Source of the DNA: a phage
Sequence record: PZ495249.1
Strand: one strand, 5' to 3'
DNA: 64,000 bases
Below the pieces are notes generated by a model. The model saw only the letters and a program-made list of their open reading frames with translations, was not told the origin of the DNA and did not search any database. Position numbers and translations under genes: made by a program. Positions 2,671-19,506 of this stretch are shown piece by piece. Within the stretch, counting starts at the first letter, position 1. Every line of letters begins with the position of its first letter.

Positions 2671-4629
2671 TTATCCGCCAGTTGATGAACCACCACTTGA
2701 CATTTGTAATGTCAGTGACTGAGTGTATGAGTTACTGAATTCATTCATACGAGCATCAAACATGTTCTGGAATCCGTAGCTGTCTGGTGTAATCAGAACT
2801 TGGAACGCCTCTTTAGGGATCGTCAGAGTGTTCTGTACTAATAGTTGAGACTGCGTAGGACGATAAGAGTTAGCACCAAGAGTTGCTTGGTTAGCAGCAA
2901 AACTGTATGGGTCCATACTTGCGTAGCTGTTTGCAAATCCAACCTGGTTCGGACCGAGAGCAGCCTGTCCAGCCATAAGGTTAGGATCTTGTACGCCAGG
3001 GATCATGTTCAGATTGGCTGCGCTATTCATCATACTATTCCAACGAGCTACCAACCAACCAACTGCACTATCTTCATAGTACAAGCCGTTATCGGAAAGT
3101 TTTTCATGCTTATTCTCAGGATTAATACTTACAACCCAACTTGCAAGAGATGCAAGAGCGACAGCAATTTCACCCGCTGATTTACCGATCTCTTTCGCTG
3201 CATTCATGAATAGAGGAACATTCTTCTGGAACTCAGGAGCTTCCTTCATTGCATCCATGAAACCAACCACCATGTTAGCGCTAAAACCGTCACCGAACTG
3301 ATTCATTTTCTCTGAAAGAATAACGTACTGTTGAGCGGCTTTGATTTGTTGATCAGTTAGCGCACCACCAGTTTGAGTTAACTGGCGAACCATGTCCATG
3401 TACTCTTTACCGTTGTCCAGGAACATACGTTGGTAGTGCATTAAGTCATCACCTAAGTTTTCCATTAGACGACCAATCTGCGCAGAGTTCATACCACGAC
3501 GCTGACCTTCATTCACAGTTGCCTGGATAAAGTCAAGAGGTCTGTTCTGGAATTGTTTAAGCTGATCAATGTTCCAACCAAACTGGTTCATGATATCGTT
3601 AATACCGCTATCACCACCTTTCCACTTCCCTGATTTTTGGTCAAAGGTAGAGTTCATCGCAGAGTTACCTAAGCGTTCACGAACGTCTTTGATGTTGTCG
3701 ATTGCTTTGATGATGTTAGCTGAGTCAACACCGTTCACACGTCCCCAGGCTTGCATAGCTAAGATTGCGTTAGGGTTAGTCTGTACGTTCTGAGCACCAC
3801 GAGAAATCATGTTGGTACGTTCAGCACTCTTCGACATTGTTTCCTGAATACGGCGTAGTCCTTCAACCACTCCAGCACCAAGAATAGCCCCTGCAATCAT
3901 GCTTGGGTTAAGTCCTAAACCACCTTCTTTGATTCTATCATAACGACGAGCACGATCTCTTGCTCTTTGATCCTGTTCACGCTTCTGTTCACGTTCACGA
4001 AGTTTACGTTCTCTTTCACGTTGACGAATACGGGCTTTTGCGATAGCCTCTTCTTCACGTTTGACACGGCGACGGCCTCTCACTTCATCTTCGATCTCTG
4101 CGTTCTTAGCGCGGTGAGAACGACGAATGTTATCAAGCTGATGAGCCATTGTTTGGTTTAAACGTTGAAGAGTGATTTGCTCTTGACGATATAAATCTAA
4201 CGTCTGTGAGACAATACGGTTTGCTTGTTGGAGTGTAGCGTTATCGGCTTTTGGAAGCTGTGCTGCTCGGAACGAGAAGTTTTCCATCTTCATGTTCGCG
4301 ATATCATTTCTACGTACAGCCGGATCTACCTTCGGTGGTTTTGGCGGCTTAGGTGGACGTGGAGGAGGTGGCGCGGGTGGTGGATTACCACCGCCAGCAC
4401 CTGGAGGAGGATTGCCCCCTCCGGCTCCGCGCATAGCGTCACGAATACGTTTAGCGTAACGTTCCATCTCTTGCATCTGGCGTCTAATCTTCGTCATGTT
4501 CAATGACGGTTGAATACCTTCCGCAAAATTTTTGATACCTTGGATGGAATCCTTTGCCTCTTTCAGACTCTGTTTATCCACCGTAAAGGTAACGGTGTTT
4601 TTGATTTTCGAAGTGTTAATTTCTAACAA
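2671..4629 (-). CDS. putative tail tape measure protein, 652 aa
   Basis: Position after tube/sheath/chaperone genes; charged coiled-coil stretch (RQRERERKLREREQKREQ...); Pro/Gly-rich repeat GGGNPPPGAGGGNPPPAPPPPRPPKPPKPP. Confidence 0.5.
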   Translation of the reverse strand: MLEINTSKIKNTVTFTVDKQSLKEAKDSIQGIKNFAEGIQPSLNMTKIRRQMQEMERYAKRIRDAMRGAGGGNPPPGAGGGNPPPAPPPPRPPKPPKPPKVDPAVRRNDIANMKMENFSFRAAQLPKADNATLQQANRIVSQTLDLYRQEQITLQRLNQTMAHQLDNIRRSHRAKNAEIEDEVRGRRRVKREEEAIAKARIRQRERERKLREREQKREQDQRARDRARRYDRIKEGGLGLNPSMIAGAILGAGVVEGLRRIQETMSKSAERTNMISRGAQNVQTNPNAILAMQAWGRVNGVDSANIIKAIDNIKDVRERLGNSAMNSTFDQKSGKWKGGDSGINDIMNQFGWNIDQLKQFQNRPLDFIQATVNEGQRRGMNSAQIGRLMENLGDDLMHYQRMFLDNGKEYMDMVRQLTQTGGALTDQQIKAAQQYVILSEKMNQFGDGFSANMVVGFMDAMKEAPEFQKNVPLFMNAAKEIGKSAGEIAVALASLASWVVSINPENKHEKLSDNGLYYEDSAVGWLVARWNSMMNSAANLNMIPGVQDPNLMAGQAALGPNQVGFANSYASMDPYSFAANQATLGANSYRPTQSQLLVQNTLTIPKEAFQVLITPDSYGFQNMFDARMNEFSNSYTQSLTLQMSSGGSSTGG

Positions 4630-4644
4630 GGGATTCCTCCGCTA

Positions 4645-4839
4645 TTACTCGTTAGGGATCATATTCTTGAAGACATTATCCAGTTGTTTAACTGTACGTT
4701 GTTGTCCTCGTTTAATATCATGATCTTTGGCATAAAGCGCCTCAACATATTCTTCGTAAGTCAGATATTCATACAACTTGAGAAGATAGTCCACCCCGTA
4801 GTTATCCAGCGTGTACAATGTTTCAGAGGTGTGTTTCAC
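4645..4839 (-). CDS. small tail-module ORF, 64 aa, possible frameshift extension of the chaperone
   Basis: Short ORF between chaperone-like gene and tape measure, in a different frame. Confidence 0.3.
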   Translation of the reverse strand: MKHTSETLYTLDNYGVDYLLKLYEYLTYEEYVEALYAKDHDIKRGQQRTVKQLDNVFKNMIPNE

Positions 4840-4919
4840 TACTTTACAGAGAATAACTTCATACCATGTTAAGCTAATTGTTTGCGAGGCAATGTCAATT
4901 GCATGTTTAATGGCTGGAT

Positions 4920-5420
4920 TTAGCTCTTCGCCAGGCTCTCTATTCCTTTGAACTGTGTCAACAGTTTTCCGAAACCTCGTTTGAAAAAAGGGGAATAGTT
5001 CACCTCAAGAACTTTCGCAGTTAATTCAATTACGAGTTCAGGGTGAGCAAAGAATAATTCGTCGAAGTTTTCTGATACGTTATGACCAGATTCAGTATAA
5101 ACCTCATCAAGAATTTTCTGGAGGAATAACGCCAGGTTCTTTTCTTCCAATCCTGAGAATAGCTGAATAAGTGCCATCGCAATACGCGCTTCAAGATCCT
5201 CGTCTGCTGACGAAGTAGCCGTGTCATACATGATCATTGGGACAGCTAATACGCTTCCCAGTTCAGGAATCCTTTCAAATACTTTGGTTGGACTCCATTT
5301 TAAAATTCTGAATCGGACAGAACGACCTTCATCAAGTTCAATGTCTACGATTTCTTCTGGACGTGCATACTTTTGGATAGTATTATCTTTCTGTTTTTCC
5401 ATTATATATTCCTCTCTCAA
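4920..5420 (-). CDS. putative tail assembly chaperone, 166 aa
   Basis: Gene between tube and tape-measure genes, acidic; position-based call. Confidence 0.4.
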   Translation of the reverse strand: MREEYIMEKQKDNTIQKYARPEEIVDIELDEGRSVRFRILKWSPTKVFERIPELGSVLAVPMIMYDTATSSADEDLEARIAMALIQLFSGLEEKNLALFLQKILDEVYTESGHNVSENFDELFFAHPELVIELTAKVLEVNYSPFFKRGFGKLLTQFKGIESLAKS

Positions 5421-5449
5421 AAAATAAAGGGCATTGCTGCCCTTTTATA

Positions 5450-5929
5450 TTACTGAATGGTCAGCGCAGAAATTGAGTTCAGCGCGTTAACGCCAACACC
5501 AATTGTTGAGCGAAGCAGAGTCGCATCTTGCAGACCGATTACCCACTGGTTTTCCTGAATAGTGTCACCGATGGTATCGTCTGGTTGACTTTGAATCCAA
5601 CCAATGGTAGTAATGTAGTAACCGCGAGGGTCTTCCAGGTATACGCTGAAAGCTACTGCGCGAGTAGAATACATTTGCTGTGCATAGGCTGAAAGAACTT
5701 CATTAGCCGGAGATGTACGTTGCAAAGACATAGTTAGCGTACCAAGACGGTTACGGCTAAGCGCTAATGAAACATCACCATCAGTACCAGCATATGGGTT
5801 GATGATATCGTTGGTTTTAGATACTACGATCTTAGTATCTGAGGCAAAGCCCCACGGTTCCCAACCACCCAGAGAAAGAATTACCTGAGAAGGGTCGTAG
5901 GCCATCATGCCTGTAAGCATTTTATCCAA
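5450..5929 (-). CDS. putative tail tube protein, 159 aa
   Basis: About 160 aa ORF directly downstream of the sheath-like gene; size and synteny typical of myovirus tube proteins. Confidence 0.5.
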   Translation of the reverse strand: MDKMLTGMMAYDPSQVILSLGGWEPWGFASDTKIVVSKTNDIINPYAGTDGDVSLALSRNRLGTLTMSLQRTSPANEVLSAYAQQMYSTRAVAFSVYLEDPRGYYITTIGWIQSQPDDTIGDTIQENQWVIGLQDATLLRSTIGVGVNALNSISALTIQ

Positions 5930-5979: not shown

Positions 5980-7386
5980 TTATGAGGATACTGTAGTGCT
6001 GTTAGAGTTCTGTACGTTGGCAGTACGGTTCGTTAGAACGTTCACCTGCACTTTAACGTAGTGGAAGAATCCAGCATATACATACTCAATCACCATACCG
6101 TCTACCAGGCGCTGGTTGATTTGCGCATCGGTCATGTCGGCACGAGATGGGATGTAAACCGTTGGTTTCAGACTCACAAGCAGTCCAGTTTCTTCTGAGG
6201 TAACTACTTCGTTAGAAATAGAACCGTTACGAATACCCACTTGGATTGGGTTTGCCATTACCGCTTGACGAATCAGAGCGATACCAGCAGATGTTGCACG
6301 AACACCGCTTCCAAGCATTGATTGCTGCTTGAACAGAGTGAATAGAGATTCTTCTGTACGAGCTTTGAACCACAGTGAGTGAACAACGTAGTCAACGAAG
6401 AACCCATTAACCATGAAGCCATCACGATAGAACAGTACGCCGTGTTCTTTACGGTAGATGTTACCATTCTGTTGAACAATATAGTTCTCGGAAGTCTGAT
6501 CCAGTTTTTCAATCTCAATACCAACCAGAGTCTTACCGTGAAGGGTAGTCGTACCAGGTTGAGCAGAGCAGATTGAACCTACAACCGCAGCTTCTGGGAA
6601 TACAGTGTCAGCTTTCGTCATCCACAGGGCAAAACAAGTGTTCACATAACCCATGTCGCCAAGGCGTTCAAGGATGTTATCTGTGGCCTTAGTTTTGATG
6701 CCAGGTTCAGAGCTTGAGAAGAAGTACACTTTATCGTGTTCTTCAACATACCCTGCTACGTCAATGATATCCTGATCTACGTGAGAATCAGAAACTACCC
6801 AGAAGTAACTGTTATCTTCGTTAGAGATTGCTGTCAGATCTTCGAGAATAGAGTTCTCATAAGTTGTTACGCTTGTGAAACCTTGGCTTGATACGGAAGC
6901 AAATTTACCTGCTTTCGGTGCGAAGGTCATCTTAGCTCCATCGTTTGCCACGGTGAAGAAAGCGTTATAAGTTGTGTCTGCGTTGATCATTTCGGTTAAA
7001 CCTACTACGATCTCTTGCGCAGTTGCAGTGTCGTCAGAAACGAACTTGAAGTCCTTGCTCTTAGTACCGTTCTTGATAGTTACAATGTAGGTGTAGCTAT
7101 CTGTTACAATCGGTGTTAGAGTGAACTGGTCAACGTCACGTTTACCAACGATTACTTGTTGTGGTGCGAACAGTCCATCAAATAGCAGTTTTGCCATTTT
7201 ATAAGCTGGATCGCTCGTACTGAAACCTGCCGCCAGAAGTGCATCTGACGAAGTGAAGTAGTCAACTAAATTACCTGTTACAGAATGCCCTGTAAGAATT
7301 AGCGGAATGTCGAACTGAACTTCACTAATTGCAGTAGCACCGTAGGTAAGAGTAACGGAAACTACCTTTTCGCGAAAAGTTGCCAT
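5980..7386 (-). CDS. putative contractile tail sheath protein, 468 aa
   Basis: Large ORF upstream of the tube gene; size and position as in sheath-tube pairs. Confidence 0.55.
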   Translation of the reverse strand: MATFREKVVSVTLTYGATAISEVQFDIPLILTGHSVTGNLVDYFTSSDALLAAGFSTSDPAYKMAKLLFDGLFAPQQVIVGKRDVDQFTLTPIVTDSYTYIVTIKNGTKSKDFKFVSDDTATAQEIVVGLTEMINADTTYNAFFTVANDGAKMTFAPKAGKFASVSSQGFTSVTTYENSILEDLTAISNEDNSYFWVVSDSHVDQDIIDVAGYVEEHDKVYFFSSSEPGIKTKATDNILERLGDMGYVNTCFALWMTKADTVFPEAAVVGSICSAQPGTTTLHGKTLVGIEIEKLDQTSENYIVQQNGNIYRKEHGVLFYRDGFMVNGFFVDYVVHSLWFKARTEESLFTLFKQQSMLGSGVRATSAGIALIRQAVMANPIQVGIRNGSISNEVVTSEETGLLVSLKPTVYIPSRADMTDAQINQRLVDGMVIEYVYAGFFHYVKVQVNVLTNRTANVQNSNSTTVSS

Positions 7387-18449: not shown

Positions 18450-18524
18450 TGGTTGTAGCAGATGGAATCGAACCATCATCAATCGGTTATCAGCCGAACG
18501 TATTAGCCGTTATACTATGCCACA
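18450..18524 (-). tRNA. tRNA-Ile (anticodon GAU)
   Basis: Encoded CCA, 7-bp acceptor, T-arm GATGG-AATCGAA-CCATC, anticodon loop reads CUGAUAA. Confidence 0.55.
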
Positions 18525-18530
18525 ATTGTT

Positions 18531-18613
18531 TGGCATCCAGGTGAGGAATCTAACCCCTTGAAACTGGTTTTGGAGGCCAGCAACGGGAACACCCATTTTT
18601 AATCTACCCAGAT
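18531..18613 (-). tRNA. degenerate tRNA-like element or pseudo-tRNA
   Basis: Preceded by the ATTGTTTGG boundary motif; acceptor stem possible with two G.U pairs; T-loop degenerate (AATCTAA); no clean anticodon arm. Confidence 0.2.
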
Positions 18614-18619
18614 ATTGTT

Positions 18620-18695
18620 TGGAGGCGGGAGCCGGAATCGAACCGACCTGCGACAAGCATATGAAACTTGTGAGTTCCCAGAACTCTATCCCGCA
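18620..18695 (-). tRNA. tRNA-Met (anticodon CAU)
   Basis: CCA encoded; T-arm GCCGG-AATCGAA-CCGAC; anticodon loop UUCAUAU; position 1-72 appears mismatched. Confidence 0.5.
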
Positions 18696-18699
18696 CTTT

Positions 18700-18775
18700 T
18701 GGTTGATAGTAAGAGAATCAAACTCTTCTCACAACGCCGTATGAAAGCGTCCGAAACATCAGCTTCACACTATCA
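18700..18775 (-). tRNA. tRNA with CAU anticodon (Met, fMet or Ile-lysidine)
   Basis: Perfect acceptor (TGATAGT/ACTATCA), T-arm AAGAG-AATCAAA-CTCTT, anticodon loop UUCAUAC. Confidence 0.5.
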
Positions 18776-18776
18776 A

Positions 18777-19040
18777 TTAAACACGATGGATTATTTTAAC
18801 TGTCTCACCCTTATCATTCATAAGGTAGGCACTTTCATTCCTATGAATAAAGTCCGTAGAGTTGCCACTAATGACACTTGCAATAACACCATCCAGCTTA
18901 TCATAACCTTCAAAATGATATTGGATGTGTATATTTCCATCAAGTTCTATATAATGTTCTTCTTCATCTACCTCGTAAGGTACTGAGTCATAAATTTTTG
19001 TCCCTTTGGGGAACTTGCGAACTATTTTCAATGTATACAT
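18777..19040 (-). CDS. hypothetical protein, 87 aa, inside the tRNA array
   Basis: ORF with good SD (GAAGGAAATACT-ATG); no recognisable motif. Confidence 0.4.
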   Translation of the reverse strand: MYTLKIVRKFPKGTKIYDSVPYEVDEEEHYIELDGNIHIQYHFEGYDKLDGVIASVISGNSTDFIHRNESAYLMNDKGETVKIIHRV

Positions 19041-19124
19041 AGTATTTCCTTCGTAGTGTTTATATTAGTAATATGCCGTCCCAAGCCGAACGGCGATTAG
19101 TGTTTTAGCTTGGCATTGATAATA

Positions 19125-19199
19125 TGGTACTTCCTGGAGGAATCGAACCACCGACGCTCACCTTGTAAGGATGACGTTCTACCATTGAACTAAGGAAGT
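19125..19199 (-). tRNA. tRNA-Val (anticodon UAC)
   Basis: CCA encoded; perfect acceptor ACTTCCT/AGGAAGT; T-loop AATCGAA; anticodon loop CUUACAA. Confidence 0.55.
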
Positions 19200-19272
19200 A
19201 TGGCGGGGATTTTCCGCACTGTCTATCGCGATATGGACTCGGACAGTGTTCTCGGCTAAATACCCCATTGTT

Positions 19273-19359
19273 TGGTACATCAGGTCAGACTCGAACTGAC
19301 ACGCCCTCACGAGCACTGGAACCTAAATCCAGGGCGTCTACCAATTTCGCCACTGATGC
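19273..19359 (-). tRNA. tRNA-Leu (anticodon UAG), type II
   Basis: 87 nt with long variable arm; T-arm GTCAG-ACTCGAA-CTGAC; anticodon stem CTGGA/TCCAG; loop UUUAGGU. Confidence 0.55.
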
Positions 19360-19367
19360 ATTTAATT

Positions 19368-19444
19368 TGGTGGAGAAGTGGAGAATCGAACTCCATACTC
19401 GAAGGTGCAAACCTCGTGTTTTAACCGAATATTACTACATCCCC
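19368..19444 (-). tRNA. tRNA-Ala (anticodon UGC)
   Basis: CCA encoded; T-arm TGGAG-AATCGAA-CTCCA; anticodon loop UUUGCAC. Confidence 0.45.
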
Positions 19445-19506
19445 AATTTGTATACACTACACAGAAGATAGGTCTGATTGCCTCGGCAGTTGCCGTAGTG
19501 TTTATC

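Follow-up and report, generated by a model that had tools for sequence, protein, structure and literature searches.

In phage lambda, the tail assembly chaperone gpG and its frameshift-extended form gpGT are made at a ratio of about 30:1, with the shared part binding the tape-measure protein and the T part binding the tube protein (PMC5009743). This frameshift arrangement is conserved in long-tailed phages despite sequence divergence, and in P2-like myoviruses the frameshift efficiency is 2-3 fold above that of lambda (PMC5009743). In December 2025, a "hypothetical protein" of the Vandenendeviridae (including Pakpunavirus Adele) and Andersonviridae was described as the C-terminal part of a frameshifted chaperone, TAC-NC; the -1 frame is open in all of those genomes, and an invariant GTTTTT motif lies near the 3' end of TAC-N (PMC12846349). 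The same study names Stephanstirmvirinae and Vequintavirinae as related clades without examining their chaperone loci. Here we analyze the tail assembly chaperone locus of the phage in sequence record PZ495249.1, using a window of 64,000 nucleotides, which is the whole stretch of DNA analyzed; all coordinates are window positions, and all relevant genes are on the minus strand. Comparison with related phages indicates that one chaperone gene very probably gives rise to two proteins, a short one of 160 amino acids and a long one of 252 amino acids, through a programmed -1 ribosomal frameshift at 4992..4983. The site would be an unannotated tail chaperone frameshift of the lambda G/GT type, its peculiarity being a second, overlapping slippery heptamer.

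The initial annotation of this DNA had reported an open reading frame (ORF) of 166 amino acids and one of 64 amino acids, in different frames and about 80 nucleotides apart between the tube and tape-measure genes, and had suggested that a frameshift joins them. We confirm the coordinates, and the suggestion itself is supported by a slippery run, an open -1 frame, a coding gap, and conservation among relatives. The features at issue are as follows.

5402..4920, minus strand: tail assembly chaperone, short standard-frame product of 160 amino acids plus a TAA stop at 4922..4920
5420..4920, minus strand: the 166-amino-acid ORF as reported, counted from TTG 5420
5006..5003, minus strand: internal Shine-Dalgarno-like GAGG, 13 nucleotides 5' of T_TTT_TTC and 10 nucleotides 5' of C_CCT_TTT, a putative stimulator
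5004..4645, minus strand: open -1 frame of 119 codons plus a TAA stop at 4647..4645, from three-frame translation
4992..4983, minus strand: slippery run CCCTTTTTTC, chaperone codons Pro138-Phe139-Phe140, within the 82-nucleotide overlap
4919..4840, minus strand: apparent noncoding gap of 80 nucleotides
4839..4645, minus strand: the 64-amino-acid ORF, with a GTG start

As with lambda gpG/gpGT, the pair lies after the major tail or tube gene and just before the tape-measure gene, and the long product would come from a -1 slip near the 3' end. Unlike in lambda, where tRNA-Lys slips on G_GGA_AAG, the heptamers of the window are U/C rich and involve tRNA-Phe; moreover, the tail of this phage is contractile, and the two chaperones have no detectable sequence similarity. 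Phage P2, with its E/E+E' pair, is alike in its contractile tail and U-rich heptamer, and its -1 frameshift likewise falls between the genes for tube and tape measure. Its heptamer is reportedly T_TTT_TTG, ending in G whereas that of the window ends in C, and its protein family is a different one, as the window chaperone belongs to Phage_TAC_15 and the Pfam search returned no P2 family. The chaperone loci of Pakpunavirus and the other Vandenendeviridae and Andersonviridae share with the window a related virion module, a misannotated downstream ORF, an open -1 frame, and a T run. In those phages, however, the T run follows a G, whereas in the clade of the window it is preceded by CCC, which creates the second overlapping heptamer.

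The upstream ORF is a bona fide member of a tail assembly chaperone family. It matches Pfam PF21822 (Phage_TAC_15) at profile positions 3-123 of 127 with 81.4 bits against a cutoff of 22 (E=1e-22), a score over the curated gathering threshold, and it also matches phrog_3840, "tail assembly chaperone" (E=5e-50). PF21822 is likewise carried by all 40 of the 40 homologues recovered from databases. An AlphaFold2 model of the N-terminal part, built from 29 sequences, reached a predicted local distance difference test score (pLDDT) of 67.8, and a Foldseek search of this model against the PDB gave no match with E<1. An alignment-free model of the 252-amino-acid fusion (pLDDT 38.8) was unusable and was set aside. 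A search with the fusion sequence gave no PDB match and no meaningful one in NCBIfam, and the -1 extension had no match in Pfam. We also note that the record of phage EmilieFrey (MZ501063.1; L027 255..737) labels its chaperone homologue as a second "tail tube protein," probably a misannotation.

A slippery heptamer near the end of the 166-amino-acid ORF, which had been proposed as a check on the frameshift, is present in the form of CCCTTTTTTC at 4992..4983. Within this run, two X_XXY_YYZ heptamers overlap in the chaperone frame, C_CCT_TTT (4992..4986) and T_TTT_TTC (4989..4983), and the run is read there as tcC-CCT-TTT-TTC (Ser-Pro-Phe-Phe), 23-24 codons before the chaperone stop. No further in-frame T_TTT_TTC occurs among the 11,893 codons of long ORFs in the window. 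As CCT makes up 34% of Pro codons in the window, and TTT and TTC make up 33% and 67% of Phe codons, Pro-Phe-Phe would be expected to be written CCT-TTT-TTC only ~7.5% of the time. When -1 motifs were measured systematically in Escherichia coli, heptamers of the form H_HH.U_UU.Y (H = U, C, or A) ranked among the most efficient, and C_CC.U_UU.U and U_UU.U_UU.C cause >0.1% shift even without stimulators (PMC4066793).

The region has ~77-79% DNA identity to phi92-like and phAPEC8-like phages (Stephanstirmvirinae: Justusliebigvirus, Phapecoctavirus, and unclassified Klebsiella phages). The close-relative set consisted of 9 GenBank phages, 17 IMG/VR contigs, and the window, giving 22 distinct sequences with a chaperone protein identity of 56-99%. 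The window and 26 of 26 relatives share an identical run, CCCTTTTTTC, with zero column entropy that extends to three synonymous positions; over the stretch from about -14 to +29 relative to the run, column entropy stays very low.

Under the proposed mechanism, the majority of ribosomes would decode 5402..4920 to give the 160-amino-acid chaperone, the analogue of lambda gpG. A minority would slip back one nucleotide at CCCUUUUUUC (CCC-UUU-UUU-C), either on U_UUU_UUC with tRNA-Phe in both the P and A sites or on C_CCU_UUU with tRNA-Pro and tRNA-Phe, and would then cross the apparent gap and the 64-amino-acid ORF in the -1 frame as far as the TAA at 4647..4645. Slippage at either heptamer leads to an identical protein. 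The outcome would be the 252-amino-acid long form, analogous to gpGT, with a predicted mass of ~29 kDa: chaperone residues 1-140 followed by QTRFRKTVDTVQRNREPGEELNPAIKHAIDIASQTISLTWYEVILCKVVKHTSETLYTLDNYGVDYLLKLYEYLTYEEYVEALYAKDHDIKRGQQRTVKQLDNVFKNMIPNE (QTRFRK...MIPNE), a C-terminal extension of 112 amino acids. The predicted tryptic peptides are VLEVNYSPFFK for the short form and, for the long form, the junction peptide VLEVNYSPFFQTR together with TVDTVQR and HTSETLYTLDNYGVDYLLK from the extension. If the lambda model applies, the two forms would be made in a fixed ratio and both would be needed for tail assembly: the tape-measure protein would be coated by the N-terminal part common to the two, and the extension would bring in tube subunits so that polymerization begins. 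Neither form would stay in the virion.

The same fusion could be made by transcriptional slippage, in which RNA polymerase adds an extra U on the T6 run so that the mRNA encodes all 252 amino acids in a single frame; the run is a six-T homopolymer, and one inserted U would give exactly this sequence. We regard this as unlikely. Efficient slippage by bacterial RNA polymerase is known from runs of about 9 or more, and T6 is shorter. Furthermore, the run is kept in exact X_XXY_YYZ register in every relative and is flanked by C, which is needed by the ribosomal mechanism but not by the transcriptional one. In favor of slippage during transcription, E. coli genes avoid U7 and A7 runs whatever the frame, and this very process may be the reason (PMC4066793).

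A ribosome that shifted at the run would enter a frame that is open well beyond it. The frame of the 64-amino-acid ORF is -1 relative to the chaperone, and it overlaps the chaperone 3' end by 82 nucleotides. Stops constitute 8.8% of -1-frame codons within the long ORFs of the window, with 15 in the first 132 codons of the chaperone gene, and from this frequency the chance of 119 stop-free codons is P ~2e-5. The +1 frame was ruled out, being open for 10 codons only. Among the close relatives, the -1 frame opens shortly before the run and continues for 109-127 codons without a stop, closing a little short of the tape-measure gene.

The apparent gap carries a coding signature in the same frame. 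Across the 22 distinct sequences, codon-position entropy in the -1 frame of the gap is 0.65/0.50/1.34 for positions 1/2/3, a periodicity matching that of the 64-amino-acid ORF in the -1 frame (0.92/0.56/1.35); the chaperone body in its own frame gives 0.61/0.39/1.16. Differing codons in the gap are synonymous in 40% of cases in the -1 frame versus 9% in each of the other frames, and the 22 sequences contain 0 stops in the -1 frame versus 40 and 64 in the others. The pattern indicates that the 80-nucleotide gap is coding in the -1 frame, comprising a variable linker and the start of a conserved C-terminal domain.

The 64-amino-acid ORF is an artifact of ORF listing, namely the C-terminal part of the -1 extension after its first GTG, and no independent gene. 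An independent ORF with its own ribosome-binding site, which the initial annotation had set against a frameshift, is not what we find: GTG 4839 has no Shine-Dalgarno sequence upstream (the preceding sequence is gttattctctgtaaa), the start is not conserved, and the -1 periodicity reaches back to the slip site. In contrast, a clear GAGG precedes the chaperone gene and a clear GGAGGA the tape-measure gene. Among relatives, the earliest possible start codon (ATG, GTG, or TTG) of the -1 frame lies 93-207 nucleotides past the slip site, varying from one phage to another and sometimes falling well within the conserved domain, and the candidate starts have at most a 3-4-nucleotide purine match upstream, with no conserved start or Shine-Dalgarno sequence. 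The 64-amino-acid ORF matches phrog_16039, phrog_10409, and phrog_8811, all of unknown function; PHROG families 16039, 10409, and 8811 appear to be fragments of the -1 extension (window 4645..4900 and rV5) and no independent genes.

These observations bear on whether there are instead two separate genes, the downstream frame being translated alone from GTG 4839, from another internal start, or by reinitiation. A separate small coding sequence is indeed listed in many relatives (e.g., Phi92_gp133), the small ORFs form their own PHROG families, and the metagenomic relative L031 has a -1-frame ATG with a good Shine-Dalgarno sequence at the slip site. Yet the annotated starts vary by phage, none has a convincing Shine-Dalgarno sequence, and several public records annotate nothing there, while the 80 nucleotides before GTG 4839 show -1-frame periodicity with never a stop, and the opening of the -1 frame always lies shortly ahead of the slippery run. 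Two genes are thus a very unlikely arrangement.

From the slip site to the chaperone stop, periodicity remains that of the chaperone frame, and every sequence except one has the TAA at the same position. As the chaperone-frame tail and its TAA are conserved, the C terminus of the short product is therefore also under selection, and the comparison points to selection on both the short and the long product. A sequencing error in the homopolymer, or an indel that recently disrupted a single chaperone gene at the T run, is an extremely improbable cause of the two frames: although homopolymer runs are error-prone and the noisy Logan contig L037 has T5, plus other indels, T6 is identical in >30 sequences from independent isolates and metagenomes, the chaperone-frame tail (KRGFGKLLTQF...) and TAA are conserved with chaperone-frame periodicity, and there is no in-frame fused version among billions of database proteins. 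This T5 variant lies behind P0041, a 107-amino-acid "protein" starting at the slip site; we discarded it, as it comes from a short noisy Logan contig (SRR14312191; L037 600..620) with frame-breaking differences upstream.

The fusion query against a 5.8-billion-protein collection recovered 40 homologues of 158-175 amino acids, all matching the N-terminal part only, with no in-frame fusion. The -1 frame against 1.84 billion cluster representatives gave 15 matches of 33-107 amino acids with inconsistent N termini and no fusion; the two exceptions among them are long, weak, and unrelated looking. Judging from these searches, no lineage in the collections fuses both parts or supplies the extension with a consistent start of its own.

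In a tblastn search, the fusion protein matched Vequintavirinae as two halves lying in two frames. In rV5, SSE121, VLCpiM5a, and CB7 (~30% identity), the chaperone ends in ...NYGCFF..., encoded with tgT_TTT_TTC, and 124-131 codons of open -1 frame lead up to the tape-measure gene. The rV5 -1 extension is homologous to that of the window, with 29% identity (E=2e-11) and shared PHROGs 10409, 16039, and 8811. Thus rV5 gp051/gp050 and the other Vequintavirinae resemble the window in having homologous N- and C-terminal parts and T_TTT_TTC at the equivalent position (NYGCFF versus NYSPFF), but their Cys codon TGT stands where the window has the Pro codon CCT, leaving a single heptamer, and the Gly/Ser-rich linker is longer. 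The RefSeq record of rV5 (NC_011041.1; L034 1018..1386) lists gp050 as a separate overlapping hypothetical gene.

T_TTT_TTC is also present without CCC in the metagenomic relatives L030 and L031. Because it is kept without CCC in these two and in the Vequintavirinae, T_TTT_TTC is, on the comparative evidence, the ancestral and universally kept heptamer, with C_CCT_TTT an extra specific to the clade of the window. We also note that L031 (60..110 of a Logan SRR33215005 contig) has a -1-frame ATG exactly at the slip site (ATG-TTT-TTT-C) with GGAGGAG 10 nucleotides upstream; this GGAGGAG may alternatively be a Shine-Dalgarno-like frameshift stimulator.

In the window, the internal GAGG is possibly a stimulator of this kind, comparable to the Shine-Dalgarno element of dnaX. 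GAGG or GGAGG occurs in 12 of 13 distinct close relatives and also in rV5 and L031, while GAGG is missing from L008, L030, SSE121 (which has GGAG only), VLCpiM5a, and CB7. The Glu codon at the motif is GAG, whereas GAA accounts for 71% of Glu codons in the window, and the motif coincides with a conserved Glu-Val dipeptide. The GAGG is found 10-13 nucleotides 5' of the heptamer, a distance reported to be within the range stimulatory for -1 shifts, and may correspond to the upstream Shine-Dalgarno-like stimulator of E. coli dnaX. Unlike dnaX, which has an A_AAA_AAG heptamer, the window lacks a conserved downstream hairpin, and its GAGG is not universal among relatives. A 6-base-pair hairpin of the window, AACTGT-TGAC-ACAGTT (about 4966..4951), was examined as a stimulator and rejected, being broken in relatives.

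Several points weigh against a programmed frameshift at this site. No conserved stimulatory RNA structure is found 3' of the slip site (RNAalifold, -0.99 kcal/mol with 0 covarying pairs in 11 distinct sequences), and single-sequence folds of this region differ from one another. The internal GAGG is lacking in several relatives, and frameshift efficiency may be low. The strong nucleotide conservation from -14 to +29 is partly explained by dual coding alone, and it is conceivable that the distant relative L031 initiates the extension independently at its slip-site ATG. Among the annotated public records inspected, 0 of 16 marks a frameshift or a joined coding sequence, and support for the long product is comparative throughout.

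The long chaperone is absent from the annotation of the window and from all of the 16 inspected records, which come from phi92-, phAPEC8-, and rV5-like phages. The C-terminal half appears in those records as a "hypothetical protein" with an arbitrary start, or it is unlisted. Our literature search returned no description of this frameshift in phi92-, phAPEC8-, Stephanstirmvirinae, or rV5-like phages, where "frameshift" refers to host mutations, and it turned up no published measurements of the two proteins for this clade. Recognition of the frameshift would restore an essential tail-assembly protein to these genomes, several of them from therapeutic candidate phages. It would also extend conservation of the chaperone frameshift across Vandenendeviridae, Andersonviridae, Vequintavirinae, and Stephanstirmvirinae, with the U-run slip site kept down to ~30% protein identity. 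The value lies mainly in annotation correction; the biology is ordinary, and the understanding of recoding and tail assembly is unchanged.

The genes and signals surrounding the frameshift are listed below.

7386..5980, minus strand: sheath gene, 468 amino acids, with DUF3383 and phrog_205 matches
5929..5450, minus strand: tail tube gene, 159 amino acids, matching Pfam PF11681 KPP10_Orf10 (E=7e-7) and phrog_280 (E=3e-37)
5445..5426, minus strand: terminator-like hairpin between the tube and chaperone genes, AAAGGGCA-GCAA-TGCCCTTT followed by ATTTTTT, from a pattern scan
5411..5414, minus strand: chaperone Shine-Dalgarno sequence GAGG, 8 nucleotides before ATG 5402, read from the sequence
4629..2671, minus strand: tape-measure gene, 652 amino acids, with a TTG start and the Shine-Dalgarno sequence GGAGGA at 4640..4635, matching phrog_16051, "tail length tape measure protein" (E=1.6e-240)

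The true chaperone start is likely ATG 5402, giving 160 amino acids, rather than TTG 5420, because GAGG lies 8 nucleotides upstream of this ATG and 160 amino acids is the length of nearly all 40 database homologues. The tube gene is annotated as tail tube in the records of relatives. A terminator is annotated at the position equivalent to the hairpin in the record of phage Paula, and in the window this hairpin could reduce transcription of the chaperone and tape-measure genes relative to the sheath and tube genes. The tape-measure gene starts 15 nucleotides past the stop of the -1 frame. Tape-measure residues ~68-100 (window ~4330..4430, minus strand) contain a duplicated Gly/Pro-rich stretch, GAGGGNPPP-GAGGGNPPP, followed by APPPPRPPKPPKPPK; Tandem Repeats Finder did not report this duplication at the DNA level. 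A search for tandem repeats in the chaperone region found none.

A bolder proposal, which we consider unlikely, is that the phage itself tunes the ratio of short to long chaperone through the tandem double heptamer of the Stephanstirmvirinae clade (C_CCU_UUU_UUC), which has the GAGG upstream and no structure downstream, together with slip-site tRNAs of its own. If so, frameshift efficiency would be much higher than in the lambda paradigm, or dependent on the stage of infection. A cluster of 23 tRNA genes lies at 18450..23838 on the minus strand. It includes adjacent genes for tRNA-Phe(GAA) at 19589..19663 and tRNA-Pro(UGG) at 19670..19745, which would decode the slippery codons. A further tRNA with the anticodon CUA, at 22066..22140, is labeled "Pyl" by ARAGORN and looks like an amber suppressor.

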